Below, piece after piece: positions 9,636 through 33,622 of a DNA stretch of 64,000 nt; positions within the stretch are counted from its first letter, which is position 1; every line of letters starts with the position of its first letter. A program made the translations under genes and the position numbers. The stretch lies in NCBI RefSeq assembly GCF_030013595.1, contig NZ_CP122768.1. One strand, given 5' to 3'. The stretch comes from Escherichia coli (lineage in GTDB: Bacteria; Pseudomonadota; Gammaproteobacteria; Enterobacterales; Enterobacteriaceae). Under the pieces are notes generated by a model, which was given only the letters and a program-made list of their open reading frames with translations, had not been told where the DNA came from and did no database searches.

Positions 9636-10358
9636 ATGCAGGATACGGATTTTTTCAGCTGGCGTCGCACGATGCTGTTGCGTTTTCAGAGGATGGAGGC
9701 CGCAGAAGAGGTCTACCATGAAATAGAGCTTCAGGCTCAGCAGCTGGAGTACGATTACTATTCGTTATGTGTTCGCCACCCGGTACCATTCACGCGACCT
9801 AAAGTGGCTTTCTACACCAATTACCCTGAGGCGTGGGTTAGTTATTATCAGGCAAAAAATTTTCTCGCAATTGATCCGGTGCTGAACCCTGAAAACTTTA
9901 GTCAGGGCCATTTAATGTGGAATGATGACTTATTCAGCGAAGCACAGCCGTTATGGGAAGCTGCGCGCGCACATGGTTTACGCCGCGGTGTCACTCAGTA
10001 TTTAATGCTGCCAAATCGGGCGCTGGGCTTTTTGTCCTTTTCCCGTTGCAGCACGCGCGAAATACCCATTCTTAGTGATGAACTGCAATTAAAAATGCAG
10101 TTACTGGTGCGCGAAAGTCTGATGGCTCTGATGCGTTTAAATGATGAAATAGTGATGACGCCAGAGATGAATTTCAGCAAGCGCGAAAAAGAAATTCTGA
10201 AATGGACGGCGGAAGGGAAGACATCAGCAGAGATAGCGATGATTTTGTCAATCTCTGAGAATACGGTCAATTTCCATCAGAAAAACATGCAGAAAAAAAT
10301 CAATGCACCAAATAAGACCCAGGTGGCCTGTTACGCGGCCGCTACTGGCTTAATTTGA
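9636..10358 (+). CDS. sdiA: LuxR-family quorum-sensing regulator SdiA
   Basis: MQDTDFFSWRRTMLLRFQRMEAAEEVYHEI... with C-terminal LuxR HTH (track ORF starts 12 nt upstream). Confidence 0.85.
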   Translation: MQDTDFFSWRRTMLLRFQRMEAAEEVYHEIELQAQQLEYDYYSLCVRHPVPFTRPKVAFYTNYPEAWVSYYQAKNFLAIDPVLNPENFSQGHLMWNDDLFSEAQPLWEAARAHGLRRGVTQYLMLPNRALGFLSFSRCSTREIPILSDELQLKMQLLVRESLMALMRLNDEIVMTPEMNFSKREKEILKWTAEGKTSAEIAMILSISENTVNFHQKNMQKKINAPNKTQVACYAAATGLI

Positions 10359-14782: not shown

Positions 14783-15826
14783 TCATTTTCTCTGGCCACC
14801 AACTACGGGCACTACTTTAACTTTTCGGTCATATGCTGCTGTCTGTCGTGGGTTCTTATGCCCGGAAATTGCTTGCTTCTCTTCCAGGCTGCCTTCCAGA
14901 TCAGAGATACCTTTTGCTTTCAGATCATGAAATGTGAAGTCTATTTGCAGATGAGGATATTTTTCCTGTGCTGCCGCTTTGACATCACGCCAACGAGAGT
15001 TAAAACCATCACGGGTGTACTTGCCTCCGGTAGTTTGATGAATCACAAACAGGCTACTGATTCCCGGTTTTAATGGCAGAGAACGAGCCAGAGCTATCGC
15101 TTTCTGCAGACGAGGCGACCAGGCTTTGATTTGCTTAACGCCGGTTTTTCCCTGACGAATGTAGATCCCGGAATCGAACAGCTGGTCTTTCTGTAATGAA
15201 AGTACATCACTCTGTCTGGCCACACATAAGTAGGCAATCTCCATTGCCACGCGAACAACATCAGGAGACACTTCATAAACGGCCTGATATTCTTCATCCG
15301 TAATATAACGTTCGCGTGCTGTCTCTTTAAACTGCTTAACTCCCTGACAAGGATTCCTCTGGACATAACCTCGTTCATAACCCCAACGGAATACCCTGGA
15401 CATAAAGCTTTTTTCCCTATTTGCCTGAGTTCGGCTTGATAAACCGCGTTGATCCATATAGCGCCGAATATGTTCAGGTTTGATTTTATCCGGGTCGATC
15501 TTCCCGAAGACAGGCAGAACTTTTCCGGAATATTTTGTGTAGTCTTTCCTGGTTTCGACTGCCAAATCCATAAAATCAGGGGAGGTCATGAATTGTTCCG
15601 CGAGCGCCTGAAAAGTATTTCTTTCTTTTTCGTCACCGACCGCTTTTTCATATGCCAGCCATACGGCTGATCGTGGCGCATCCAATGCGCACAGGCGTAT
15701 CGCTTTGTTATCTTTATTCCTGAATTCGTAGGCCGCTTTGCCCTGGTAAACACGAGGCGGCATCCAGTTATCTGCTGGGTTCTTTCTCTTTCCGGCCATT
15801 AAATATTGCTCCAAAATCAGGTTCAT
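14783..15826 (-). CDS. int: Prophage tyrosine integrase
   Basis: 347-aa ORF next to attL/tRNA, opposite orientation; C-terminal region (...HDLKAKGISDLEG...SGHKNPRQTAAYDRK) resembles tyrosine-recombinase catalytic region. Confidence 0.85.
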   Translation of the reverse strand: MNLILEQYLMAGKRKNPADNWMPPRVYQGKAAYEFRNKDNKAIRLCALDAPRSAVWLAYEKAVGDEKERNTFQALAEQFMTSPDFMDLAVETRKDYTKYSGKVLPVFGKIDPDKIKPEHIRRYMDQRGLSSRTQANREKSFMSRVFRWGYERGYVQRNPCQGVKQFKETARERYITDEEYQAVYEVSPDVVRVAMEIAYLCVARQSDVLSLQKDQLFDSGIYIRQGKTGVKQIKAWSPRLQKAIALARSLPLKPGISSLFVIHQTTGGKYTRDGFNSRWRDVKAAAQEKYPHLQIDFTFHDLKAKGISDLEGSLEEKQAISGHKNPRQTAAYDRKVKVVPVVGGQRK

Positions 15827-16031
15827 CTTCTTTTCGCGTCGTCACCTCCTGTAAATTGCGAAATTTTATTGGGTTCAAGAAATGGCCCCAGGTTGTTTTT
15901 GGGTGCCCGTCAGCCCTTTCCATGAAGAAAATTCCAGCCCGGCGAAGAGCCTCACATTGCTTTGATTTAAGTGGGCTTCCCGTCAGCTCGACCATTTCTT
16001 CTCTGGTGATTATGTCGTGATCGCTTTTCAT
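15768..16031 (-). CDS. Putative excisionase / small DNA-binding protein
   Basis: 87-aa ORF immediately upstream of int and overlapping its start, as for lambdoid xis; no diagnostic motif. Confidence 0.35.
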   Translation of the reverse strand: MKSDHDIITREEMVELTGSPLKSKQCEALRRAGIFFMERADGHPKTTWGHFLNPIKFRNLQEVTTRKEDEPDFGAIFNGRKEKEPSR

Positions 16032-16240
16032 GGTCTTTCCTCATTATGTAGCTTATTGCGTCATCTGCCTTCTGGCAGGCACGGGCAATATCAGACTCGG
16101 TCAAAGTCTGTTTCCTGACGCTGGCCGACAGTCGGCCAATTTTGATATCAAATGCGGAGAGCAGAGTTGCTCCCGGTTGCCATCGCAGCATTGTGATCCT
16201 CCGGTTACTGGTGAAACGCAATGCTAGCGATGGTGAGTTT

Positions 16241-16423
16241 TTATTTCTGATTAGGCGTAATCAGTTCTGGTGGGGGGAATGCCGATTTCTCCCGCGTGAC
16301 CTTAATGTTTTCTGGCAGGTGTAGCCCAAGTTCGCAGCGACTCCGTGCTTCAATAATGCCATTGGTACCATCGGCAAGTACCAGGTGAACCGCGTCACCA
16401 CGCTTTAATGTGAGTTTAAGCAT
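16241..16423 (-). CDS. Small early protein with CsrA-like sequence pattern
   Basis: 60 aa MLKLTLKRGDAV...GLHLPENIKVTREK; gapless alignment to CsrA (MLILTRRVGETL...GVNAPKEVSVHREE) conserves M1 L2 L4 T5 G9 G33 P37 V42 R44 E45. Confidence 0.3.
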   Translation of the reverse strand: MLKLTLKRGDAVHLVLADGTNGIIEARSRCELGLHLPENIKVTREKSAFPPPELITPNQK

Positions 16424-16992
16424 TAGCGTACCCTCAGCGAACGTTCGCCGCGTTCCAGATGTGCGCCTGGTACCGGGTTTAATAACTCGGCTGGTGGTGT
16501 TTCTCCACGCGCCAGTATTTCGGCGGCAACCGCCTCCGCAGATTCAATCACTTCTTTAATGGCTCGCTTGTTTGGTGTAATAACCGTTTCTACATCAACA
16601 AGTGACACGCCTTCATACTCATCCGGGATCTTATCTTTGCTATCGATAATTACCCGGATAGCCCCCTGTGCATCAGTAAATGTGTTTTTTGCGGTTTTTA
16701 GTTTATCCAGGCCAGCAGCTTGCAGGCAGGCGAGCATATGCTTCCGAATTGCTTTTTCCTTGCCTTCAAAGGACGTCTTACGGGTAGCCAGGCGAGACAT
16801 TTCTTCAGCGCAGGTACTGGCATTGCCCTGTAAATTACGGCAGATGACCATCATGGCGTCCAGTTTGTCTCCCAGTTCTCCTTCCATACCTTCAAGCGTG
16901 TCGGCGATCATCTCTGGCGTCAGTTCGTCGGAGGTTTCTAACAGGTCAATCAGACTGGCATATTCTTTTGCAATAGCGATAGCAGTGCTCAT
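16423..16992 (-). CDS. Phage recombination-module protein (Gp157-like, tentative)
   Basis: 189-aa acidic ORF directly downstream of the annealing-protein gene; family from memory. Confidence 0.4.
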   Translation of the reverse strand: MSTAIAIAKEYASLIDLLETSDELTPEMIADTLEGMEGELGDKLDAMMVICRNLQGNASTCAEEMSRLATRKTSFEGKEKAIRKHMLACLQAAGLDKLKTAKNTFTDAQGAIRVIIDSKDKIPDEYEGVSLVDVETVITPNKRAIKEVIESAEAVAAEILARGETPPAELLNPVPGAHLERGERSLRVR

Positions 16993-19214
16993 GCTGTTTG
17001 CTCCTGTGCTGCGGTGAGGGCGGTGAGGCGTTCGGTTTTGATTTCATTCAAACGGCGCAGGCGCGAACCAAGATAAGTTGAATACTCCTTATCACCTTTG
17101 GATTCTGCGGCCTTGCGGTGAACTTCTACTTCCCGCGCAATAAGGCCATAGACTTTATTAACTTCATTGGGGGTTACGGCTGCAGCCAGTGTTTTGGCAA
17201 CACCTGAGAGTCGTTCATCCAGTTCTTCACGCAGTCGGGTAGCATCCTCTGCTTTCTCGCTTGCCTTCTTAATACTGTATTCTGTATTCAGCTCGGCGGT
17301 GTAGGCACTATCGTTATGCATATCCATATAAACATCTGCCGCAAATCCCAGATGAGATAGTGCTTTGACGGTGGCATCAGTAAGAGACTTTTTGGAGGCC
17401 TCTTTTTCCATTACCAGTGCCCCTTTGTTATTTTTTGATATGTAATCCGTGTGGCCATATGACGGAATAAATCCTTTCACTCCGTTCCAGATGTACCAGA
17501 GATCTATCCGGATGGTGTGTACTGACAGGCAGAACAGGGAACCGTCAGCATCCCTGACAGGTTTTTGTCCAATAATTTTCCCTGTCTGATCCTGTATAGG
17601 TTCAAGTAATGGCACACCGCGATCCACTCGCTCCTCCTTGATTTCAACTCCCCAACCAATGCCTTCCATTCCCAGCACTTCAGTCGCACGCATCAAAATA
17701 TATTGTGCGCGTATGGAGTGCAGTCCTGCACCGTAATCATTATGTGTGACATACGCAGGATCGGTCCGCTGAACGCGATTCCAGATAGCCAAATTTGCTT
17801 TGCTCTGGTCATCATTCATTGCTGACAGATAATGCTCCATGCGAATTGATGCAGTTTTTTCCTCGGCATGGGGCGGCTCAACCAGCGCGTCAACGTTCTG
17901 CACCAGGTCTTTTACCTGCTCGCTAAGTTTTTCTTGTGGAGGAGTCTCTTCTGCCGGGGTAATAGCTGCAGGTTCCCTCTGTGATACGGCGTTATTTTCA
18001 GGTACGTCATACACATGGCGAGGCGTGACAAACTGCTCACGCAACTGCTGCAAACTACGTTCTCCAGCATTTGCTGCTTCGCTTTTTTCGCCCTGATTTG
18101 AGGGTGTTTCTGACATCATTCCATCAATTGAGAATCGCCCGCCGCCGTGGTTGGTGACTTTTACATCATCCTTTGGTGCTGTTTCCTTTGGCTTCTCTTC
18201 AACAGCATTTGCATCACGCTGCCCGTTAGCTTGCAGCCAGTTGTCGATGTGACTGCGCAGGGATTGCGGGAAGTGGTACGTGTCTTTTGCGGGGGCGCTC
18301 TGAATAACACCGAATACTGATGCGCGGTCATAGGCAAGGATCTGATCCGTTGTGCGCAAGGCCATTGACCAGCGTTTAAAATCCTCCCGATCCTGGCTGA
18401 TTATTTCGTCTGCCGCTTTCAGGACGCTGGGGGTGATTTTTTCCGGGCCAACGGGTAACAGGGCGCAGGCAATTTCACGATCCAGTGTGGCGTGAGTCTG
18501 TTGGTAAGGACGTGCGGATGCTGTTTCTGGTTTTACCTCCGGCAGCATTTCATCGCGTTTACCGGGATTCTCTACCCATTTTTTTATAAATTTGGAGATA
18601 GTCCAACTGGTCGGGTTTTGTTCCTGGGTATCGCAACTTGCCAAAATTGCATGTACCAGATTATTCAATCCAGCAATATGCATGTACTCGATGGGCTTAC
18701 ACGCCACCATGGCATCAAGAACGATGCGGTTAAACGCGTCAACCTCATCCTCACTGTCAGTATCACTGTTGTCGAGCATCTCCAGGTATTCACGCGTCTG
18801 CGCAAGCAATTCACTGTCGACTTCGTTGGCGTCGTGGCTGAACAGCAGGACGGCGGCGAAGCGTTCACGAGCCGGCAGTTTCATCAGGTCGTTAACCTGT
18901 GCGATATCTGCTGAACCGCTATCTGAATCAGCGGGGGTGTTAACTACCCATTTTTCGCCATCAAAACTGTGTTCTGTGGCAAACGTCTCATCAAACTCAC
19001 CGACGCCAGGGCGCGGTTGGCCCGGGGCATCTTCCCAGATTTTAGGTTTGAAATAGTTGTCGCCGTGGTCAGGGTAGGCTTCCCACAATTTGCCGATGAT
19101 GATGTTCTCGGCAACTTTTTTGTTAGGGGCGTCGATGGCGATGGCCAGCGCCGGGATCGCGCCGTTTTTGAGCGCGCCTTTTTTCGCTTCTAACAAGCCG
19201 TTAAAGATGGTCAT
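16989..19214 (-). CDS. Large early protein with C-terminal Erf/Rad52-type single-strand annealing domain (tentative)
   Basis: 741-aa ORF, RBS GAGGAAAGACCA before ATG; C-terminal ...KEASKKSLTDATVKALSHLGFAADVY resembles the Erf signature; N-terminal ~450 aa acidic, unrecognised. Confidence 0.5.
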   Translation of the reverse strand: MTIFNGLLEAKKGALKNGAIPALAIAIDAPNKKVAENIIIGKLWEAYPDHGDNYFKPKIWEDAPGQPRPGVGEFDETFATEHSFDGEKWVVNTPADSDSGSADIAQVNDLMKLPARERFAAVLLFSHDANEVDSELLAQTREYLEMLDNSDTDSEDEVDAFNRIVLDAMVACKPIEYMHIAGLNNLVHAILASCDTQEQNPTSWTISKFIKKWVENPGKRDEMLPEVKPETASARPYQQTHATLDREIACALLPVGPEKITPSVLKAADEIISQDREDFKRWSMALRTTDQILAYDRASVFGVIQSAPAKDTYHFPQSLRSHIDNWLQANGQRDANAVEEKPKETAPKDDVKVTNHGGGRFSIDGMMSETPSNQGEKSEAANAGERSLQQLREQFVTPRHVYDVPENNAVSQREPAAITPAEETPPQEKLSEQVKDLVQNVDALVEPPHAEEKTASIRMEHYLSAMNDDQSKANLAIWNRVQRTDPAYVTHNDYGAGLHSIRAQYILMRATEVLGMEGIGWGVEIKEERVDRGVPLLEPIQDQTGKIIGQKPVRDADGSLFCLSVHTIRIDLWYIWNGVKGFIPSYGHTDYISKNNKGALVMEKEASKKSLTDATVKALSHLGFAADVYMDMHNDSAYTAELNTEYSIKKASEKAEDATRLREELDERLSGVAKTLAAAVTPNEVNKVYGLIAREVEVHRKAAESKGDKEYSTYLGSRLRRLNEIKTERLTALTAAQEQTA

Positions 19215-25257: not shown

Positions 25258-25565
25258 AATACAAACGGTGGGTGCGTGCGGAAGTCGTAATCATCAAACA
25301 ATGTGCAGGCAGCATGACAGTTGAACGTATAGGGCAGCTTATTGGCAGAACCGGTGCAGCGGTACGCACAAAAGCGCGCGAGCTGAAAATCTGTATGTAT
25401 CTGCGGGGTAATTATCATCAGTCAGCGAAATACTGCCAGGAGGATATCGAGCTGGCAAGGGAATTACATCAGTCGGGTATTAATCGCCAGGATATCGCGG
25501 AAAAACTCGAAATGCCGATCGGAGCGGTGAATCAGTTTGTTTATTTTGAGCGGAGGATTTCATGA
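25254..25565 (+). CDS. Putative HTH DNA-binding protein
   Basis: 103 aa with two HTH-like segments (MTVERIGQLIGRTGAAVRTKAREL; INRQDIAEKLEMPIGAVNQF). Confidence 0.35.
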   Translation: MKYKRWVRAEVVIIKQCAGSMTVERIGQLIGRTGAAVRTKARELKICMYLRGNYHQSAKYCQEDIELARELHQSGINRQDIAEKLEMPIGAVNQFVYFERRIS

Positions 25566-25786
25566 AAGAACTTTTTCTGGCATTTGTGCCCCGGTTTATT
25601 AATGACCAGATCGCACTGACTAATAATGGTGAACAATATGAAATTGCCTGCAGCATGGTGGATGTGAATCCTGGCGAACGGTATGACGCGATGTGTGACC
25701 TGAAAATATTTACCTGGCTGGGTTGGGCTATTCCGTGTGGAGAACCAACCAATATTCGCCCATTTGAGAGCAGGGAGGCTGTATGA
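25562..25786 (+). CDS. Hypothetical protein
   Basis: 74-aa ORF overlapping neighbours by 4 nt. Confidence 0.3.
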   Translation: MKELFLAFVPRFINDQIALTNNGEQYEIACSMVDVNPGERYDAMCDLKIFTWLGWAIPCGEPTNIRPFESREAV

Positions 25787-25949
25787 GTGAATTGAAAATA
25801 CGAATGAACCCAAGTCGCAAGGCGATCAAATTTGCGCAGTGTGTCTTGCAGATGGCTGAAGGTGAATGTTATATAAAAGAGTGTCATGGATAACAAGGCA
25901 CTCACTATCAATGATTATCTGTTAAAAAAGCAATCGACAAGGAGTTGAA

Positions 25950-26207
25950 ATGCAGACTCAATTAAAGGTTAAAGGCGGTTATAGTCATTTTTTCTTCGCC
26001 AATATTGAAGTCTCACAAAGAGAGTCAAATGGCGGTTTGGTTGTCGTTAGGGATGTTAATATACCTATTACAACAACAACTCTCTCTCTGTTAGAGAATT
26101 ACGCTGTAGGGCAGGTGTTGACGTTAGAACAAAAGAATGGCGATTTTTTTGATGTGTATTACGTTGGAACTGATGGGAATAACTTTCAGTTTTCAACGCA
26201 CTGCTAA
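25950..26207 (+). CDS. Hypothetical AT-rich small protein (3' end lies in repeat copy A)
   Basis: 85-aa ORF with AAGGAG RBS; its last ~90 nt reappear degenerate at 31186.. Confidence 0.4.
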   Translation: MQTQLKVKGGYSHFFFANIEVSQRESNGGLVVVRDVNIPITTTTLSLLENYAVGQVLTLEQKNGDFFDVYYVGTDGNNFQFSTHC

Positions 26208-26350
26208 TTTATCAAGGCCCTGTGAGCAGGGCCTTCGAAAGCCTACTAAAGTCTGTTTCATAGAGAGAGTTATTTGCGATTAAAAAGGTATTTGGTCACG
26301 ACCAGCACGATAGAGAATACATCTTTCAAAGTACCGCCCATATAAAACAG
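26118..26350. repeat. Imperfect direct repeat, copy A (~230 bp)
   Basis: Roughly 80-85% identical by eye to 31186..31413 (ttgacgttagaacaaaa ... aaaaggtatttggtcacgacca). Confidence 0.7.
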
Positions 26351-26649
26351 TTACATATGCACTTGATGACTAAGCTGGCACCAGGTTAACACCATGCGCC
26401 AGCTTGAAGGAGACTTCAGTTATTGGTTTCTGAGGAAAGCGATTCTTGAAAGGGTCATTTGCGTCTGGCAGTCGACCATTTTCTTGACTTCAGCATCTGT
26501 TCCTTTCTTGACTTCAGCATCTGTTCCCTGCATTGAAACTTTACCGCACATAGCATCCTTAGTTTTGATCCACTGGCGCTGAGAAGGCAGCAACTTGAAC
26601 CGCCCCGGAAATCCTGGAGACTAAACTCCCTGAGAAAGAGGTAAACAGG

Positions 26650-26976
26650 ATGACTAAAAATACTCGTTTTTCCCCCGAAGTCCGTCAGCGGGCGATTCGT
26701 ATGGTTCTGGAAAGTCAGGATGAATATGACTCACAGTGGGCGGCAATTTGTTCCATTGCCCCAAAGATTGGCTGTACGCCGGAGACTCTGCGTGTCTGGG
26801 TTCGCCAGCATGAGCGGGATACCGGGGGCGGTGATGGTGGGCTCACCAGCGCTGAACGTCAGCGTCTGAAAGAGCTGGAACGTGAAAATCGTGAACTGCG
26901 CCGCAGTAACGATATCCTTCGCCAGGCTTCCGCTTATTTTGCGAAGGCGGAGTTCGACCGCCTCTGGAAAAAATGA
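26650..26976 (+). CDS. IS3-family transposase OrfA (HTH)
   Basis: [41 protein letters not shown]...; ends in AAAAAATGA frameshift window (A-run 26968-26973). Confidence 0.85.
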
Positions 26977-27863
26977 TGCCACTGCTGGATAAGCTGCGTG
27001 AGCAGTACGGGGTCGGACCGGTATGTAGCGAACTGCATATTGCCCCGTCAACGTATTACCATTGTCAGCAACAGCGACATCATCCGGATAAACGCAGTGC
27101 CCGTGCGCAGCACGATGACTGGCTGAAGAAAGAGATACAGCGCGTATACGATGAAAATCACCAGGTATACGGTGTGCGTAAAGTCTGGCGTCAGTTGTTA
27201 CGGGAAGGTATCAGAGTGGCCAGATGCACTGTGGCACGTCTCATGGCAGTTATGGGACTTGCCGGTGTTCTCCGGGGTAAAAAGGTCCGCACTACCGTCA
27301 GCCGGAAAGCCGTTGCCGCAGGCGACCGCGTAAACCGTCAGTTCGTGGCAGAACGACCTGACCAGCTGTGGGTGGCTGATTTTACTTACGTCAGCACATG
27401 GCAGGGCTTCGTCTATGTGGCGTTTATCATTGATGTGTTTGCCGGATACATCGTGGGGTGGCGGGTCTCATCGTCTATGGAAACGACATTCGTGCTGGAT
27501 GCGCTGGAGCAGGCGTTGTGGGCCCGTCGTCCGTCTGGCACCATCCATCACAGCGATAAAGGCTCTCAGTATGTGTCACTGGCCTATACGGAGCGACTAA
27601 AAGAAGCCGGATTACTGGCATCAACAGGGAGTACAGGCGACTCGTATGACAACGCGATGGCTGAGAGCATCAATGGTCTTTACAAAGCGGAGGTAATACA
27701 CCGTAAGAGCTGGAAAAAACGTGCAGAAGTGGAACTGGCCACACTAACGTGGGTGGACTGGTATAACAATCGACGATTGCTGGGAAGGCTGGGCCATACT
27801 CCTCCGGCAGAAGCAGAAAAAGCTTATTATGCTTCCATCGGAAACGATGATCTGGCAGCCTGA
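26973..27863 (+). CDS. IS3-family transposase OrfB (DDE catalytic domain), -1 frame relative to OrfA
   Basis: 296 aa with DDE integrase-core-like region (...[31 protein letters not shown]...[10 protein letters not shown]...[15 protein letters not shown]). Confidence 0.85.
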
Positions 27864-29436
27864 GTTCACAGATAAAACACTCTCCAGGAAACCCGGGGCG
27901 GTTCAACTCTTTTTTCTTCGCCGGGGTTAACTTGCTCCAGACGGTATTCAAATCAGAGTCAGCATTTGCAAATGCCATTCGGGACTGATCAAGGCTTTCA
28001 GATTTTTGCGGCTGAAGTTGTGCCTGCCTCTCTTTTTGCTTCTCCGCCTCATACCTGGCCTGTTCCTGTGCCCTGAGTTGCACCTGTTGTTCCGCTTCAA
28101 TTTGACTCTGTTGGGCATCCTTAGCCTGCTGGATTTTCTGCTGCTCAACGATCGGGTTGATAATGGAAAGCGATGTCAGTAAAGCGGCGCCCACTGATAT
28201 CGGATTATCAGAAGAGGTTTTTACAAAAACGTTTTTCTGATCGTCGGTCGCCTGCACGGTGTAGGTGATACGCCTTGAAAAGGCGTTTGCGTTGTTCTCC
28301 AAAAACAGATTTTCCATTTGCTTATCGAGATTACGATTAAAATTCTTTCTGTAAGCATCTGAAAGCTGGACGTACTCGTTCGCAGGTAGAGTCATCGTCA
28401 CGGTCCCTTCACAAGTTTTCATTGTGCTGCCCGTGTCACTTGATGTTGTGGAGATTTCAGAGACGGCTAGTTTGATCTTGTCCAGTGTGCTTCGTTTGGT
28501 CTGATTAGTGACATCAGGGTATTTATCGACCTGTTCAGAGAGTCCTTCATAAGCAGATTTTTTTAATAAATCCATGAGAGCTGATTGGGTCATTTCCGAA
28601 GAACAACCGATCTCATCTTTTTTGTTATCACAGCCTGTAAGGGCAATGGCGAGTAAGAGTACTGAGTATTTTAATCTCATGAATTCCCTTTAGAGTAAGG
28701 ATTGGTTTTTAAGACGCGGTCTGTAATCAGTTCCGAGAGCTACAGTAAACAACGCTGAGCACTGAACGCATCACAGGCAAGGTAAAAGGTGATATCGGCA
28801 AAGGCTGTGAAACCTTTAATTCAACAGATGGGAACGGTATGCACAGGATCCTGTAACGACGCTCCCAAAACTGGAAACCTGTAAGGCATGTTTTCGCTGC
28901 TGAACTTAATATACGAACCTGCACTATCATGAACATATTTTATATCGTTATACCCCGAGTGATTGTGCCCGGCAATGGATAGTGTCCTGGAGGAATTATT
29001 TCTAATGTAAAAGGAAGATATTTAATTTCGATGTGGGATTATTACCTGTCTATAAGAACAATGACTTTATCTGGCAGTAAGCAGACATCTATTAGCTTAC
29101 TGAAGGGGGGCTGTGATTTGACCATTAACGGCATGAGATATATTGTCTATTGGTGATTGTTCTGAGGCCGATATCACGTTAACGACCAAGTAAAATAACA
29201 TGAAAAATTATTTATTAATGATTGCCAGCATTAAATGTAGTGATACCTCATTAGCAGGGTGCTCCGCAATGACTGCGATGAACTAAAAAATCAGTCATAA
29301 CCATGAAAAAAACAAGTGTATCAGCGAAATTAAATCTGGTGAAAGCATTTAATTACTTGTTAATGACGCAATAAAAACATACTATGGAAATGTAACAGCT
29401 AATCTACAGTTCTTGTCAATAGGGGCGCACAAGAAA

Positions 29437-30027
29437 ATGTTAAATGAATTTAAGGAAAAGCTACTATCCGACGATATCCGCGATGTCTACCAACGATACC
29501 TTTTAGGACATGACATCTGGTATTTTCGGGAACAAAAAAAATCAATAACCTTTGCTAAAGATTATGATGAGTTTAAGCTATATATGTCTAAGAAGCTTGA
29601 AATTCATGTAAATAATATTGCAATTGTTGGAAGTGCTAAGATGGGATTCAGCTTGAGCCCTGATAAAAATTATCGAACATTTAACGATGAGTCAGATATA
29701 GACTTGGTTTTAGTATCCGACAGAATTTATAAATCTTCCTGGATGGCATTTATTGAATTACAATCAAAGAATTATTTGCCTGTATATGCTCCTGTAGCTA
29801 AAAATATTTTCAAAGGATTCGTGTCATTGAAGGAGTTAGATATTAGAGTCGATTTTTTTAATAAATGGTCCCGTAACGTTGAACCATTAAAAAAAGACAT
29901 TCAAACTATTTTTGGAATACCTAACGACATCAACTACAGAATTTATGACTCTTGGGAGTCCGTTGAACGCTATCACATAGCTGGGTTGAATAGTCTAAAA
30001 GATAAGTTACAAGGACAATTGATATGA
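29437..30027 (+). CDS. Nucleotidyltransferase-fold protein (Pol-beta superfamily signature), function unknown
   Basis: IAIVGSAKMGFSLSPDKNYRTFNDESDIDLVLVSD = hG[GS]...[DE]hDh motif; AT-rich; stop overlaps next start (ATGA); track ORF begins at TTG 29413. Confidence 0.5.
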   Translation: MLNEFKEKLLSDDIRDVYQRYLLGHDIWYFREQKKSITFAKDYDEFKLYMSKKLEIHVNNIAIVGSAKMGFSLSPDKNYRTFNDESDIDLVLVSDRIYKSSWMAFIELQSKNYLPVYAPVAKNIFKGFVSLKELDIRVDFFNKWSRNVEPLKKDIQTIFGIPNDINYRIYDSWESVERYHIAGLNSLKDKLQGQLI

Positions 30028-31082
30028 GAGCTATTGATCTAATTAAAGTTGAATCGAAAGACATTAAATGGTTGACGGATAATTTGAAATCAGGTGTTAT
30101 TACAGTTGATAATTCATATCAGAGAAAATATATCTGGCAGCAAAAAGACCAAGTGGCCTTAATTGAGACAATATTAATTGGCTACCCAATCCCTGAGATT
30201 TACCTTTGGGCAAATAATACTGATCCTGACACTGGAGATACTAAATATTCAATTGTAGATGGACAGCAAAGGCTAACCACAATCCAGCGATATTTAAATG
30301 ATGAGTTTAAGTTAAGCAAAGCAGCTATAGATGATAAAGAAGCCGACTATAGTGGGAAAATTTTTTCAGAATTGTCGGCAGATAACAAACGTGATTTTTG
30401 GCGATACCAATTCTCATCCAGATTTATTAATGAATCATTGAGATATGATGAGATTGCAAAGTTATTTTTACGTCTAAATAGAACAAATACTACGTTAAAT
30501 CCTCAAGAACTTCGTAATGCTGAATTTAATGGCGAGTTTTTAAGATTAGCCGAAGAAATTGCACAAAATGAATTTTGGGATAATTATAAGATATTTACTC
30601 AGTCAGATATCCGTCGGATGCAAGACATTCAATTCATCAGCACATTATTGATTTTCTTACGAATGGGTATTGAGCAGGATAATACACAAAAATCAATTAA
30701 TCGAGTGTATGATCAATACAATGAGAATTACCCTGAGGCGACTGAGGACAGAATTATCTTTAACGAAGTGTTAAGGATCATATCTCAAATTATCAACAAT
30801 AAACAAGTATTAGAATCAGTTGTAAAGAAAAAAGGCCATTTGTATTTTATATTTGTGCTGGCATACTATTATTTACAGCTTAGTAAATCTAAGCTTGTTG
30901 ATATGAATGTTATTAGTTCAAAGCTCGAGGATTTTTTTAATATTTATGAGTTAAATGAACAAGATAACCCCCATCCACTGGTTGAGGAATATAGATTCCT
31001 CAGCCAAGAGGGTTCAAAGAAGAGTCATAACAGACAGCGTAGATTTGATATTTTGAAAGAATTTTGCTCTTTACATGATTAA
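30024..31082 (+). CDS. DUF262 / ParB-like protein (GmrS-type N-domain only, no DUF1524/HNH half)
   Basis: YQRKYIW...IVDGQQRLTTI and ...LNRTNTTLNPQELRNAEF motifs typical of DUF262; 352 aa; AT-rich. Confidence 0.6.
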   Translation: MRAIDLIKVESKDIKWLTDNLKSGVITVDNSYQRKYIWQQKDQVALIETILIGYPIPEIYLWANNTDPDTGDTKYSIVDGQQRLTTIQRYLNDEFKLSKAAIDDKEADYSGKIFSELSADNKRDFWRYQFSSRFINESLRYDEIAKLFLRLNRTNTTLNPQELRNAEFNGEFLRLAEEIAQNEFWDNYKIFTQSDIRRMQDIQFISTLLIFLRMGIEQDNTQKSINRVYDQYNENYPEATEDRIIFNEVLRIISQIINNKQVLESVVKKKGHLYFIFVLAYYYLQLSKSKLVDMNVISSKLEDFFNIYELNEQDNPHPLVEEYRFLSQEGSKKSHNRQRRFDILKEFCSLHD

Positions 31083-31185
31083 ATGACGAAAGTGGGTTGT
31101 TTATAAGAATTGAATAAACAACCCATCATTTTAATGTACTCTGAATCCTCTCATTCTTAGTGAAATATTGTTTTTAGAACACGTA

Positions 31186-31413
31186 TTGACGTTAGAACAA
31201 AAAATAGATTTTTTTGTGATGTATTACGTTGGAGTTGATGGGATAATTATATGTTTTCAATACATTGTTAATTTATCAAGACCCTGCGACTAAGGTGTTC
31301 GAAAATCGACTAAAGTCTGTTTCATAGAGAGAGTTACTTGCGTTTAAAAAGGTATTTGGTCACGACCAACACGAGGCCGAATACCTCAGTTTAAGTACCG
31401 CTCATGTACAACA
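31186..31413. repeat. Imperfect direct repeat, copy B (~230 bp)
   Basis: Degenerate duplicate of 26118..26350, including a decayed copy of the 3' end of the 25950..26207 gene. Confidence 0.7.
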
Positions 31414-31603
31414 GTAACGTTTGCTGATAGTGTCGCATTATCTTGCAGAGGACGCAGGTTAAATAGAACAAGCATATGTACCTGGTTTTTGTAATATTGG
31501 GTATAACATATGCTTTATAGGAGCGCGCTCAATGACCAACCGAGAAAGAATCTCCTGACAGATACAGTTATTTTCACCCTCTCCATAACATAAGGGAGTT
31601 TTT

Positions 31604-32152
31604 ATGTCGGAAGTGAGTATCGTAGAAGACGCCCCACGCCCAGTAGTCGCCGAATTGGCAGATCTGTTACAAGCACAACCATTTCATCAGAATCAATATG
31701 ATAACTTATGTCGCTTTATGATTTATTTTTCCCTGGCTGAATCAAAGTTAACATCAATGGCTGCTGGCCTTGGTAGAACTGACGCACTGGCACAGGAACT
31801 GGTTGTGCATAACGGCATGGACAGTCAGACCATAGATGATTGCTATCGTTATTTTATACGACGCTATCGAGACAGCCCTGATAGCGATTACCGCTTCAAT
31901 AAACTGGCCCCGCCTGAGTATGTTAAGAATGCAATCAGAGAACGCTTTGTTACGCTACTTCAGATACAGTCTCCAACAATTGAAGATAAAATCAGCTTTG
32001 TGTTCAAAGTGATTTTTAGGTTACGGCATAATCTTTTCCATGGAGAAAAATGGTCTTACAACCTCGAAGACCAGGAAGCTAATTTTTCACATGCCAGCAA
32101 TGTACTACTATCCTGTTTGACTCTTACTCGCGGGAGTATGTGGCACCCTTGA
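31604..32152 (+). CDS. HEPN-motif protein (putative RNase / abortive-infection-like effector)
   Basis: AAGGGAG RBS; 182 aa containing FRLRHNLFHGEK, which fits the Rx4-6H HEPN motif. Confidence 0.45.
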   Translation: MSEVSIVEDAPRPVVAELADLLQAQPFHQNQYDNLCRFMIYFSLAESKLTSMAAGLGRTDALAQELVVHNGMDSQTIDDCYRYFIRRYRDSPDSDYRFNKLAPPEYVKNAIRERFVTLLQIQSPTIEDKISFVFKVIFRLRHNLFHGEKWSYNLEDQEANFSHASNVLLSCLTLTRGSMWHP

Positions 32153-32403
32153 ATGCTGGATGGATATTACGTATCGTCTGATAAGGGGTATCCAGATGTG
32201 GCTTGCAAAGAATGCCTGAGCATGTCTGTTATCGCAGAGGCGATCCTGCGCAAGCAGCCAGCTGAGTACCTGCATCTAACGCAGACCAGCTGCTCTTAAA
32301 CCGACTTCATTATCAAACATTATTTATTTTTAGCGACTACTTACTACATCTAGTGGTAGCTGAAATAAAATAACCTGCATATAGTGATTTTCGTCGTTTA
32401 AGT

Positions 32404-32500
32404 GCTTGACAATTCTGCACATGGCATTTAACGGTGTCTGTGGTAAACTATCCACAGAATAGTCAACAGTGTTGGATTGTGGATAATCGCCGGATATATG
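32404..32500 (+). promoter_or_regulatory. Putative promoter with palindromic operators upstream of small gene
   Basis: TTGACA at 32404; perfect palindrome tctgtggtaaactatccacaga; second inverted repeat gttggattgtggataatc; strong RBS GGGAGG. Confidence 0.4.
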
Positions 32501-32510
32501 GGGAGGATAA

Positions 32511-32705
32511 ATGGCTAAATATGAACTTCGACCACTGTCAGATAGCCGTAAGGCTGACATTGCTCGCAGTGCATTAGCACAAAATAGAGCCCCTGCTAAG
32601 CCTACTGCTTCAATGTCCTCTGGCTCTGCTTCAATACAGAGATCACGAGATACTGCGCGAGTAATGATGGATCGTGCATTCAGGACAGTTGTAGCCAAAG
32701 GATAA
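32511..32705 (+). CDS. Small hypothetical protein (64 aa)
   Basis: Strong RBS gggaggataaATG; followed by a clean terminator. Confidence 0.45.
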   Translation: MAKYELRPLSDSRKADIARSALAQNRAPAKPTASMSSGSASIQRSRDTARVMMDRAFRTVVAKG

Positions 32706-32722
32706 TTTTACTTTAATTGATT

Positions 32723-32749
32723 AAAGCGCCTTTTTCTGGCGCTTTTTTA
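32723..32749 (+). terminator. Rho-independent terminator
   Basis: agcgcctttttctggcgct hairpin plus T-run. Confidence 0.6.
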
Positions 32750-32764
32750 TTGCGGAAAAACCAA

Positions 32765-33445
32765 ATGGAAAAGCTCTGGGTTTTTACTCAATTAGTTACA
32801 GGGAAAGATGACACATCTGGCTTTTTGGCTTACGCGCTCTATAAGCACGACAAAAATGAATATGCAGAGAAGTTGCGTAGTAGTGGCGAATATACAGAAG
32901 AAGATATTAACGCCCAACTGAAGATCTTTCATGAGCAGACAGTTAACTCGCCAGGCCGAATTGAGTCTTACAAAGAAAAAGCAGAAGCCATCGTCACAAA
33001 CTTAACAGACCAGATAGATGCTGATATCCGGCTTGAGTACGATGCACAGTTAGCCGGTGCTAACTTGCAGGATGTTGAAATAGAACGGCTGAAAGCAGAA
33101 ATACAGGCTATGAAAGCATCACGTGAGAGCGAGCTAAGGAAGGCTGGAGAGGATGCTATTCTCAATTTTCATCGCATGGTTGAAATCACCCAGGCACGCA
33201 AACGTGGGCGTGTTTCCCGCTCGTTAGGATGGTACTGGAATGGGTTTGCCAGCATTTTCGCCACAATAACCTTCGCTGTCATTGTCTATGGTATTTGTAC
33301 TTGGGCATTGCCACAAAAATCCAGAGACGACATTGTGGATGGAGCGTTTAAAAATCTACAGGGATCGTTATTCCAACAGCCAAACATTCAATTTAATAAA
33401 GACAAAAACGAGAACGCTCAGCAACCTAACACAAGTGCCGAATAG
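32765..33445 (+). CDS. Coiled-coil protein with C-terminal transmembrane helix
   Basis: Start at MEKLWVFTQ after the terminator; hydrophobic segment GFASIFATITFAVIVYGICTW; track ORF begins at 32717 inside the terminator. Confidence 0.45.
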   Translation: MEKLWVFTQLVTGKDDTSGFLAYALYKHDKNEYAEKLRSSGEYTEEDINAQLKIFHEQTVNSPGRIESYKEKAEAIVTNLTDQIDADIRLEYDAQLAGANLQDVEIERLKAEIQAMKASRESELRKAGEDAILNFHRMVEITQARKRGRVSRSLGWYWNGFASIFATITFAVIVYGICTWALPQKSRDDIVDGAFKNLQGSLFQQPNIQFNKDKNENAQQPNTSAE

Positions 33446-33622
33446 TATCCCCGCGATGCTCCGGTAGCCTCACCATCTCGCGGGGCTTGCCTTTCCAGGT
33501 GATTGACATGATTACCAGTTTCTGAATACCGTTTTCAACGGTACTGAGCACCCAGGTGACGGTGAAACGTGAAGAATATCGCACCTTATTAAAGGTGCAG
33601 CCCCTCAAAAGAGGGGCTATTC

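Follow-up and report, generated by a model that had tools for sequence, protein, structure and literature searches.

Temperate phage genomes are mosaics in which, as the modular genome hypothesis holds, modules are swapped at shared patches of sequence (De Paepe et al. 2014, PMC3945230), and temperate coliphages recombine short, diverged homology efficiently (PMC3945230). Varying accessory or defence-like cargo can also occupy a fixed position in the backbone, as in the anti-phage hotspots of P2 and P4 (Rousset et al. 2022, PMC9122126) and in phage "morons". The locus described here resembles both. It lies in a 64,000-nucleotide (nt) stretch of Escherichia coli contig NZ_CP122768.1 (hereafter the window), which holds a lambdoid-like prophage, and it consists of two imperfect direct repeats, copies A and B of a unit named R, that bracket about 5 kb of cargo: an LprI-family lipoprotein gene, the insertion sequence (IS) IS629, and a nucleotidyltransferase-like (NTase-like) gene paired with a DUF262 gene. 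Repeats and cargo are located in a hypervariable accessory region with the replication genes on one side and the antiterminator Q on the other. As in phage mosaicism, modules are swapped at shared patches of about 250 bp and about 80% identity, with the junction inside the patch; as in the hotspots, the backbone position is fixed and the cargo varies. R is a relic of two convergent gene ends, and homologous exchange at such relic junctions in a mosaic prophage is, in our judgment, a quite probable explanation of the whole arrangement.

The repeats and their parts, in window coordinates, are:

26107..26360, no strand: repeat copy A, in which R1 is the 3′ end of the 85-amino-acid (85-aa) gene, R2 the hairpin region and R3 the relic 3′ end of a minus-strand gene
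25950..26207, plus strand: intact 85-aa gene, the last ~100 nt of which are R1 of copy A; homologs known, function unassigned
26214..26235, no strand: GC-rich hairpin AAGGCCCTG-TGAG-CAGGGCCTT separating the ends of the two convergent genes; free energy (dG) −17 kcal/mol, z −3.5
26270..26344, minus strand: relic of the 201-aa gene (phrog_5346), last 24 codons and stop, frame open without a start codon, reading YMGGTLKDVFSIVLVVTKYLFNRK and then the stop (tblastn, residues 178–201)
31175..31424, no strand: repeat copy B, found by repeat finding, gapped alignment and BLAST; hairpin decayed
31138..31242, plus strand: pseudogene relic of the 85-aa gene, 5′-truncated and with indels, which is R1 of copy B (tblastn 56%, residues 41–76)
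31334..31420, minus strand: relic of the 201-aa gene, last 28 codons and stop, with an internal stop, reading TLLLYMSGT, stop, TEVFGLVLVVTKYLFKRK, stop (tblastn)

Repeat finding returned three collinear direct-repeat families (26107–26134, 26142–26178 and 26176–26360 against 31175–31424) at a spacing of 5064–5068 nt; in a gapped alignment they become a single unit interrupted by two small indels. Of the 254 columns of this alignment of A with B, 202 match, 48 mismatch and 4 contain gaps, giving 79.5% identity. The BLAST score of the pair is 224 bits (E = 3e-60), whereas copy A scores no higher than 27.4 bits in 100 shuffled 12-kb regions, and the repeat is therefore real and non-random. The only long exact runs shared by the copies, of 28 and 25 nt, lie at 26245–26304. 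No third copy was found by BLAST within the window. An initial annotation, made from the sequence by eye, had described imperfect direct repeats of ~230 bp (26118..26350 and 31186..31413); they are present and slightly longer than that, and pairwise alignment finds the similarity neither shorter nor weaker than it was read. The same annotation had rightly placed the 3′ end of the 25950–26207 gene in copy A and a decayed copy of that end in copy B, which tblastn with the 85-aa protein recovers at 31138–31242 (56%, E = 2e-5).

The repeats had also been taken as the signature of an insertion. Instead, they are relics of two convergent gene 3′ ends with a hairpin between them. R1 is the 3′ end of a plus-strand gene, while R3, the right ~90 nt of R, reads on its minus strand as the final codons of a gene for a 201-aa protein, stop codon included; R is thus the fossil of a convergent gene junction at a shared hairpin. 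The 201-aa protein is intact in prophages of E. coli sequence type 131 (ST131), for instance at 10122–10727 of L003 (compared loci carry labels beginning with L), and matches phrog_5346 end to end. By tblastn, the ST131 protein meets copy A at 26344–26273 over 24 residues (178–201; 79%, E = 1.5e-7), with a stop codon next, and meets copy B at 31420–31337 over 28 residues (from 174; 89%, E = 5e-10), with an internal stop. The same relic is found beside LprI in ST131-type viral contigs. In the allele ST131_B, the intact 201-aa gene faces, across the hairpin, the last 30 readable codons of a frameshifted 85-aa gene fragment. These alignments identify R as a relic of one junction, made of the 85-aa gene 3′ end, the hairpin and the 201-aa gene 3′ end; an ancestor with both genes intact and convergent would presumably have preceded it. 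A divergent intact 85-aa allele in ST131 and EC28 was considered and rejected, as only frameshifted fragments are present.

Homologs of the 85-aa protein are conserved in E. coli, E. albertii, Klebsiella and Raoultella, where they are located upstream of DUF1367-YbcO-antiterminator genes, and the protein has no match in Pfam, NCBIfam or PHROG. In Klebsiella lambdoid prophages (L015–L019), the 85-aa homolog (56% identity) lies in the equivalent region and is followed by genes on the same strand (an 86-aa gene, an acetyltransferase and DinI), so that only the E. coli family has the convergent arrangement.

Alternatively, R could have been kept twice for a function of its own, be it that of a small RNA, a regulatory region, or a terminator or insulator module. 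In the central ~60 nt (26245–26304), A and B indeed show just 2 differences, a far stronger conservation than elsewhere in R, copy A has a strong hairpin, and the core motif GAGAGAGTT is kept in all R2 alleles. Yet the hairpin of copy B has collapsed (31278–31299; dG −4.1, z −0.2, versus dG −17 in copy A), the relics carry stops and frameshifts, and the empty-site allele described below differs at 10–11 of 31 "conserved" core positions. A small RNA or cis-regulatory element was rejected, since R has no Rfam match at E ≤ 1 and no fold-energy signal besides the hairpin (z 0.11 and −1.02). The copy A hairpin is terminator-like in its GC-rich stem and lacks a U-tract; neither strand has a T-run after it, and the terminator scan made no call. 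The scan found no promoter in copy A and a single weak promoter-like match in copy B (9/12, minus strand, 31271–31243), and sites overall are fewer than in shuffles. A retained function is accordingly a very unlikely reason for the two copies. An imperfect inverted repeat with a AACTCTCTC...GAGAGAGTT core (26075–26100 / 26249–26274, also 31313–31335) pairs the 85-aa coding region with the central patch of R; it could be due to chance, or could reflect long-range RNA pairing around the hairpin.

Copy B had been regarded as a degenerate duplicate of copy A, and this does not agree with the alleles found elsewhere. R1 of copy B has a 3-nt deletion and a 1-nt deletion, and its R3 has a stop codon. 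A 2-nt insertion after position 26103 (R1) is common to copy B and the ST131_B and EC28 relics. A deletion changing TGGCGAT to TAGAT is common to copy B and EC28, both of which are linked to the 182-aa gene that follows copy B. The 5′ truncation of copy B likewise occurs in ST131-type and EC28-type relics, in prophages without copy A. These shared derived indels and the truncation mean that copy B is older and did not arise in place as a duplicate of A. When set against the ST131/EC28-type allele, the copy B relic reaches left to ~31138–31149. An IS-mediated origin of its left edge, from an IS3-family element at window 31178–31184 in L002 and L014, was rejected, since the true relic starts at ~31138–31149.

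The two copies are also not each other's closest relatives, as would be expected of a target duplication or of the core of an attachment (att) site: B groups with ST131_B and EC28, and over 26112–26207 ST131_B is closer to A (90 matches, 6 mismatches) than B is to A (74 matches, 18 mismatches). Judged by these comparisons, A and B are diverged alleles of one junction, brought into one genome by recombination between phages.

This bears on the simplest account of the locus, in which a single 5-kb cassette inserted beside the 85-aa gene and duplicated ~230 bp of target, with copy B decaying in place. Such an insertion would explain why direct repeats bracket cargo, and why relatives with an empty site have the 85-aa gene directly before the 182-aa gene. 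The indels and truncation that copy B has in common with relics lacking copy A, however, predate the arrangement and largely refute it. In addition, the copy A gene module (25800–26250) matches its counterpart in the empty-site genomes without a single difference in 451 nt, though the adjoining backbone differs by 2–6%; as A and B differ by ~20%, this fits poorly with decay after a recent duplication. The cargo modules are independently distributed, and the cassette encodes no mechanism for a 250-bp target duplication. A single insertion is therefore highly improbable, and we return to exchange between alleles of R.

Exchange inside R can be seen directly in the empty-site relatives. In two of them, JNE151685 (L001) and L013, the 85-aa gene is followed by a single R and then directly by the 182-aa gene; comparison with related prophages, which had been proposed along with the annotation, thus finds the 25950 gene leading directly to the 31604 gene, and relatives do not always carry both copies with the same cargo. 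The single R is identical to copy A at 139 of 139 positions on the left (26112–26250), and to copy B at 79 of 79 positions on the right (register 26282–26360). Of the informative sites, all 34 in the left part are A-type and all 16 in the right part are B-type (Fisher p = 2e-13). This A-left/B-right chimera demonstrates past recombination inside R, and the switch zone contains the 28- and 25-nt exact runs of A and B. Moreover, all four combinations occur of an intact or pseudo-85 gene on the left with the 182-aa gene or another gene on the right, which requires recombination within R.

The exchange may have run in either direction. One possibility is that the order seen at the empty site (85-aa gene, R, 182-aa gene) is ancestral, with the window form produced by homologous insertion of a donor segment flanked by R rather than the empty form by deletion between A and B. 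The chimera is expected from either direction, and donors with R-like sequence on both sides of LprI and cargo exist in ST131-type prophages. Nevertheless, the derived changes that the pseudo-85 relic of copy B has in common with ST131_B and EC28 mean that a pseudo-85-R-182 junction existed with no intact 85-aa gene beside it; this makes the empty-site form look recombinant and not ancestral. The middle of the single R, a 31-nt patch considered below, fits neither simple direction. An ancestral empty site is thus rather doubtful, and either deletion or insertion may have been involved.

The exchange of modules at relic gene ends can be pictured as follows. An original convergent junction of the 85-aa gene 3′ end, strong hairpin and 201-aa minus-strand gene 3′ end would have been retained as the bodies of the two genes were replaced by other cargo in different lineages. 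Several diverged R alleles would result, each tied to its own neighbour, be it LprI, the 182-aa gene or the intact 201-aa gene. A window-type prophage would then join two of them: A, with the intact 85-aa gene, R and LprI, and B, with the pseudo-85 relic, R and the 182-aa gene. Direct repeats of ~80% identity would thus come to bracket LprI, later hit by IS629, and the AT-rich NTase-like/DUF262 pair. Being common to otherwise unrelated modules, R would serve as portable homology, and homologous recombination inside it, between phages or between two copies in one genome, would add or remove whole modules.

Several observations weigh against this picture and temper it. The central 31 nt of the empty-site R (26251–26281) have 11 mismatches to A and 10 to B, while A and B differ there by only 2. 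The patch in L001 and L013 is a third allele, with a partial match to ST131_B. Since it matches neither copy, the empty-site form is not a simple deletion product of the present window type, and simple insertion into the empty site does not yield the window form either; a simple A × B deletion as the origin of the empty-site form is contradicted, and one has to suppose a third allele or gene conversion. On the right, A and B end at corresponding positions (26360 and 31424), which needs one truncated ancestral allele or a recurrent breakpoint. No genome with the 85-aa and 201-aa genes both intact and convergent was found among the contexts of the 85-aa protein, those of two 201-aa alleles, and a scan of viral contigs. 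The pairing segment is 23–27 nt for Red-beta and 31–34 nt for RecA (PMC3945230); the A/B runs of 25–28 nt are near the former and below the latter, and the copies are only 79.5% identical overall. Finally, no single-strand-annealing or Rad52-like recombinase was recognised in the prophage, where the search picked up only an integrase, a Gam-like protein and a RecE-like exonuclease. Recombination enzymes of some kind would nonetheless have acted on R.

The cargo between the repeats contains:

26420..28680, minus strand: gene of an LprI-family lipoprotein (315 aa in intact form), interrupted by IS629 near codon 258 (phrog_5094; synteny; intact homolog in L002 and L011)
26596..27905, plus strand: IS629 (IS3 family), 1310 bp, with 98.9% identity, terminal inverted repeats and a 3-bp target duplication
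29413..30027, plus strand: NTase-like gene, 204 aa from TTG at 29413 (196 aa from ATG at 29437 in RefSeq), its stop overlapping the DUF262 gene start
30024..31082, plus strand: 352-aa DUF262/GmrSD_N protein with a DGQQR motif (Pfam PF03235, 1e-24), NsnA-like over its full length and without DUF1524

These do not form one 5-kb unit, as had been supposed. R3 and LprI (26271–26593 and 27904–29116) are common to ST131 prophages at 89–95% identity, where ORF6N replaces the upstream 85-aa gene. They also occur in L009, L010 and L012, with quite different genes after LprI and no second R. The following slot (29117–31148, 30–35% GC) holds the NTase-like and DUF262 genes here, a 232-aa gene in ST131 and a GIY-YIG gene in L006. 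The cassette is thus evidently a composite, from the distribution of its parts, of an R3+LprI module, a separate AT-rich NTase-like/DUF262 module and a later insertion of IS629. The description of everything between the repeats as AT-rich holds for 29000–31250, with the NTase-like and DUF262 genes at 30–35% GC, and fails for IS629 (51–55% GC) and LprI (~42–49% GC). In L002 and L011, the intact LprI homolog carries the annotation "lysozyme inhibitor LprI family" (PF07007). Within its 3′ part, the window gene contains a perfect 24-bp tandem duplication (26480–26527) that adds a second GTDAEVKK unit; owing to this unit, LprI is 315 aa long here and in L002, versus 307 aa in ST131 prophages.

IS629 shows the features of the IS3 family, with terminal inverted repeats, a target duplication (ACT at 26593–26595 and 27906–27908) and two open reading frames (26650–26976 and 26973–27863) with a −1 frameshift signal, an ALIL frameshift pseudoknot at 26931–27047 (119 bits). 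Its identity to the IS629 copies annotated in Stx phages is 98.9%. It is missing from L002 and from L011, which is otherwise identical. Its insertion is a secondary event that inactivates LprI and is unrelated to the ~250-bp repeats. Little can be said for the view that R is a recognition site, whether att-like, integron-like or part of an IS-mediated composite, with the repeats marking the termini of a mobile element. ISs do cluster in the region (IS629 here, the IS3-family element at window 31178–31184 in L002 and L014, and IS1 in L005–L007). Their positions, however, vary between relatives, and IS629 has inverted repeats and a 3-bp duplication of its own well within the cassette. No integrase or recombinase gene lies between the repeats, where IS629 is the sole transposase, and R itself is a pair of decaying coding-sequence relics. 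A recognition site is scarcely credible next to homologous exchange at a gene-end relic.

The region is bounded by backbone and right-hand genes:

25562..25786, plus strand: 74-aa gene, the final backbone gene before the hypervariable region (phrog_2241; the identical protein WP_000661082.1 is annotated in relatives)
31604..32152, plus strand: 182-aa gene, the right-hand neighbour, with the invariant FRLRHNLFHGEKWS block (Rx4H), directly after the single repeat in empty-site relatives
32717..33445, plus strand: 242-aa open reading frame (226 aa from 32765 in RefSeq; phrog_25194), annotated in L001, L002 and L004

Read rightwards, the prophage encodes an integrase (14783–15826), a Gam-like protein, a 741-aa exonuclease, a replication initiator and a DnaB-type helicase, followed by the region studied. 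In its left arm (14783–19214), the Gam-like protein resembles that of Mu and the 741-aa exonuclease is RecE-like (phrog_2489). Downstream of the region, relatives carry DUF1367, YbcO, antiterminator Q, lysis genes and terminase, the last of the P27 family in some. Among deposited phage genomes, IS629 was the sole match to the window and R was unmatched even in distant mode; there is hence no annotated phage reference. Among 5426 complete E. coli genomes, 449 contain R-like sequence, mainly in ST131-type prophages and at a median of two places per genome.

That the locus is a variable prophage hotspot, as had been proposed, is borne out by the relatives, which keep the backbone to 25802 and then carry differing cargo. 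Backbone similarity to all of them stops at ~25802, where the high-scoring segment pairs with ST131-type and EC28-type prophages end, and more than six different cargo sets lie downstream of this one breakpoint. Across strains, the cargo includes DUF262, GIY-YIG, HNH, methyltransferase, ImmA/IrrE and other types. ST131 similarity picks up again at 33552, near which the variable region ends. From the alignment edges, three swap slots can be delineated: 25803 to R3, 29117 to ~31144, and 31425 to ~33551.

The variable region is also a sink for ISs, here IS629 (26596–27905) and others in relatives. An IS3-family element lies within the pseudo-85 relic in L002 (10899–12227) and L014 (9513–10721), and L014 has an IS4-like element as well. 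IS1 occupies three different positions in ST131-type relatives (L005 7288–7985, L006 6903–7600 and L007 9362–10059); in L007, tail genes come directly after IS1, which suggests an IS-associated deletion.

The 182-aa and 226/242-aa genes (31604–33445) always travel together, the latter with a predicted C-terminal hydrophobic segment. In ST131 prophages, the 201-aa protein and an ImmA/IrrE metallopeptidase take the place of this pair. Both pairs may be accessory or defence modules. The initial annotation had called the 182-aa protein HEPN-like. This label derives from a conserved motif, RHNLFH, which is invariant in 11 homologs; the model is all-helical, and searches of Pfam, of the sequences in the Protein Data Bank (PDB) and of folds gave no match.

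The pair in the AT-rich slot deserves separate consideration. The 352-aa protein matches the PADLOC model NsnA (E = 4e-41; residues 9–348 against model positions 48–379 of 385) and PD-T4-2_A (2.5e-19), with GmrSD_N at residues 22–168 and VDGQQR read in the translation. The family of the 204-aa protein has 660 cluster representatives. In 78 members, G73, S94, D95 and D97 are invariant and S74 is nearly so; the G[GS]...[DE]x[DE] pattern of Pol-beta-superfamily nucleotidyltransferases is present. The AlphaFold2 model has a predicted local distance difference test (pLDDT) score of 96.4, and its fold matches, minimal nucleotidyltransferases among them, are insignificant or weak. The protein has no Pfam match, and a PDB sequence search came back empty. 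The NTase label given earlier therefore comes from conserved motifs, to which Pfam and fold searches add no significant support, and "NTase-like" is used here.

Every context found for the exact DUF262 protein has the same arrangement, which provides no independent context. In the contexts of distant homologs of the NTase-like gene (23–47% identity), a gene of 353–390 aa is immediately next in all four; it carries GmrSD_N in three, Pfam being not on record for the fourth (L025). Stop and start overlap or nearly abut, and three of the four contexts adjoin type I restriction-modification, NaeI, methylase or Vsr genes. The pair recurs in unrelated genomes (L022, L023 and L025–L029), mostly with overlapping stop and start and next to restriction-modification genes. 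The NTase-like and DUF262 genes thus form what looks, from gene order, like a conserved two-gene module in defence-island contexts and a candidate defence module. No system in PADLOC v2 corresponds to the pair, nor was one found in a limited literature search. We suggest tentatively, at somewhat less than even chance, that the AT-rich pair (29413–31082), whose genes are translationally coupled, is an undescribed two-gene anti-phage system, with R and the LprI flank serving as standing homology arms for swaps of the unit.

Among described defence systems, the pair is closest to Menshen (NsnABC). Menshen is defined by NsnA, with ParB-DUF262 and C-terminal DNA-binding domains, by the NsnB ABC-ATPase gene immediately downstream, and by the NsnC effector that follows (PMC12065111). 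The 352-aa protein matches NsnA over nearly its full length, including a ParB-DUF262 domain with DGQQR. Unlike in Menshen, neither NsnB nor NsnC follows 31082, where copy B and the 182-aa gene stand instead and no neighbour has a PADLOC match; upstream lies a gene for an NTase-like protein of ~200 aa, with overlapping stop and start. In PD-T4-2 (Vassallo et al. 2022), the domains include DUF262 and HEPN (PF18735), and GmrSD has DUF1524 (PMC10952713). A DUF262 component is common to PD-T4-2 and the locus (PD-T4-2_A, above), but no protein here matches the PD-T4-2_B model or PF18735, and copy B lies between the DUF262 gene and the gene of the 182-aa Rx4H protein, which empty-site genomes have in the absence of the DUF262 gene. 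GmrSD and BrxU, of type IV restriction, have GmrSD_N in common with the 352-aa protein; a DUF1524 nuclease domain, which the type IV restriction enzyme BrxU carries, is absent from that protein and its neighbours. The pair is nevertheless worth flagging as a candidate defence module, being found beside restriction-modification genes in unrelated genomes.

Our study suggests how an accessory region may be rebuilt: scraps of gene ends outlast the replacement of cargo and then give homology for the next exchange. Direct repeats can in this way bracket cargo without dedicated insertion machinery, and caution is advised in reading such repeats as insertion scars. The three swap slots are defined in a prophage family widespread in E. 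coli, ST131 included. The hotspots of P2 and P4 differ in that the present phage family is lambdoid-like, the position lies between the replication genes and Q, and a defence role of the cargo is putative. The IS629 copy is fully typical of such insertions in E. coli prophages, with nothing unusual about it. Compared with the mosaicism of temperate phages (PMC3945230), what differs is that the shared patch is precisely identified, as relic convergent 3′ ends with a hairpin, and occurs twice in one genome. As a whole, the locus is ordinary mosaic-phage biology, which does not overturn current understanding and is a well-resolved instance of known phage mosaicism.

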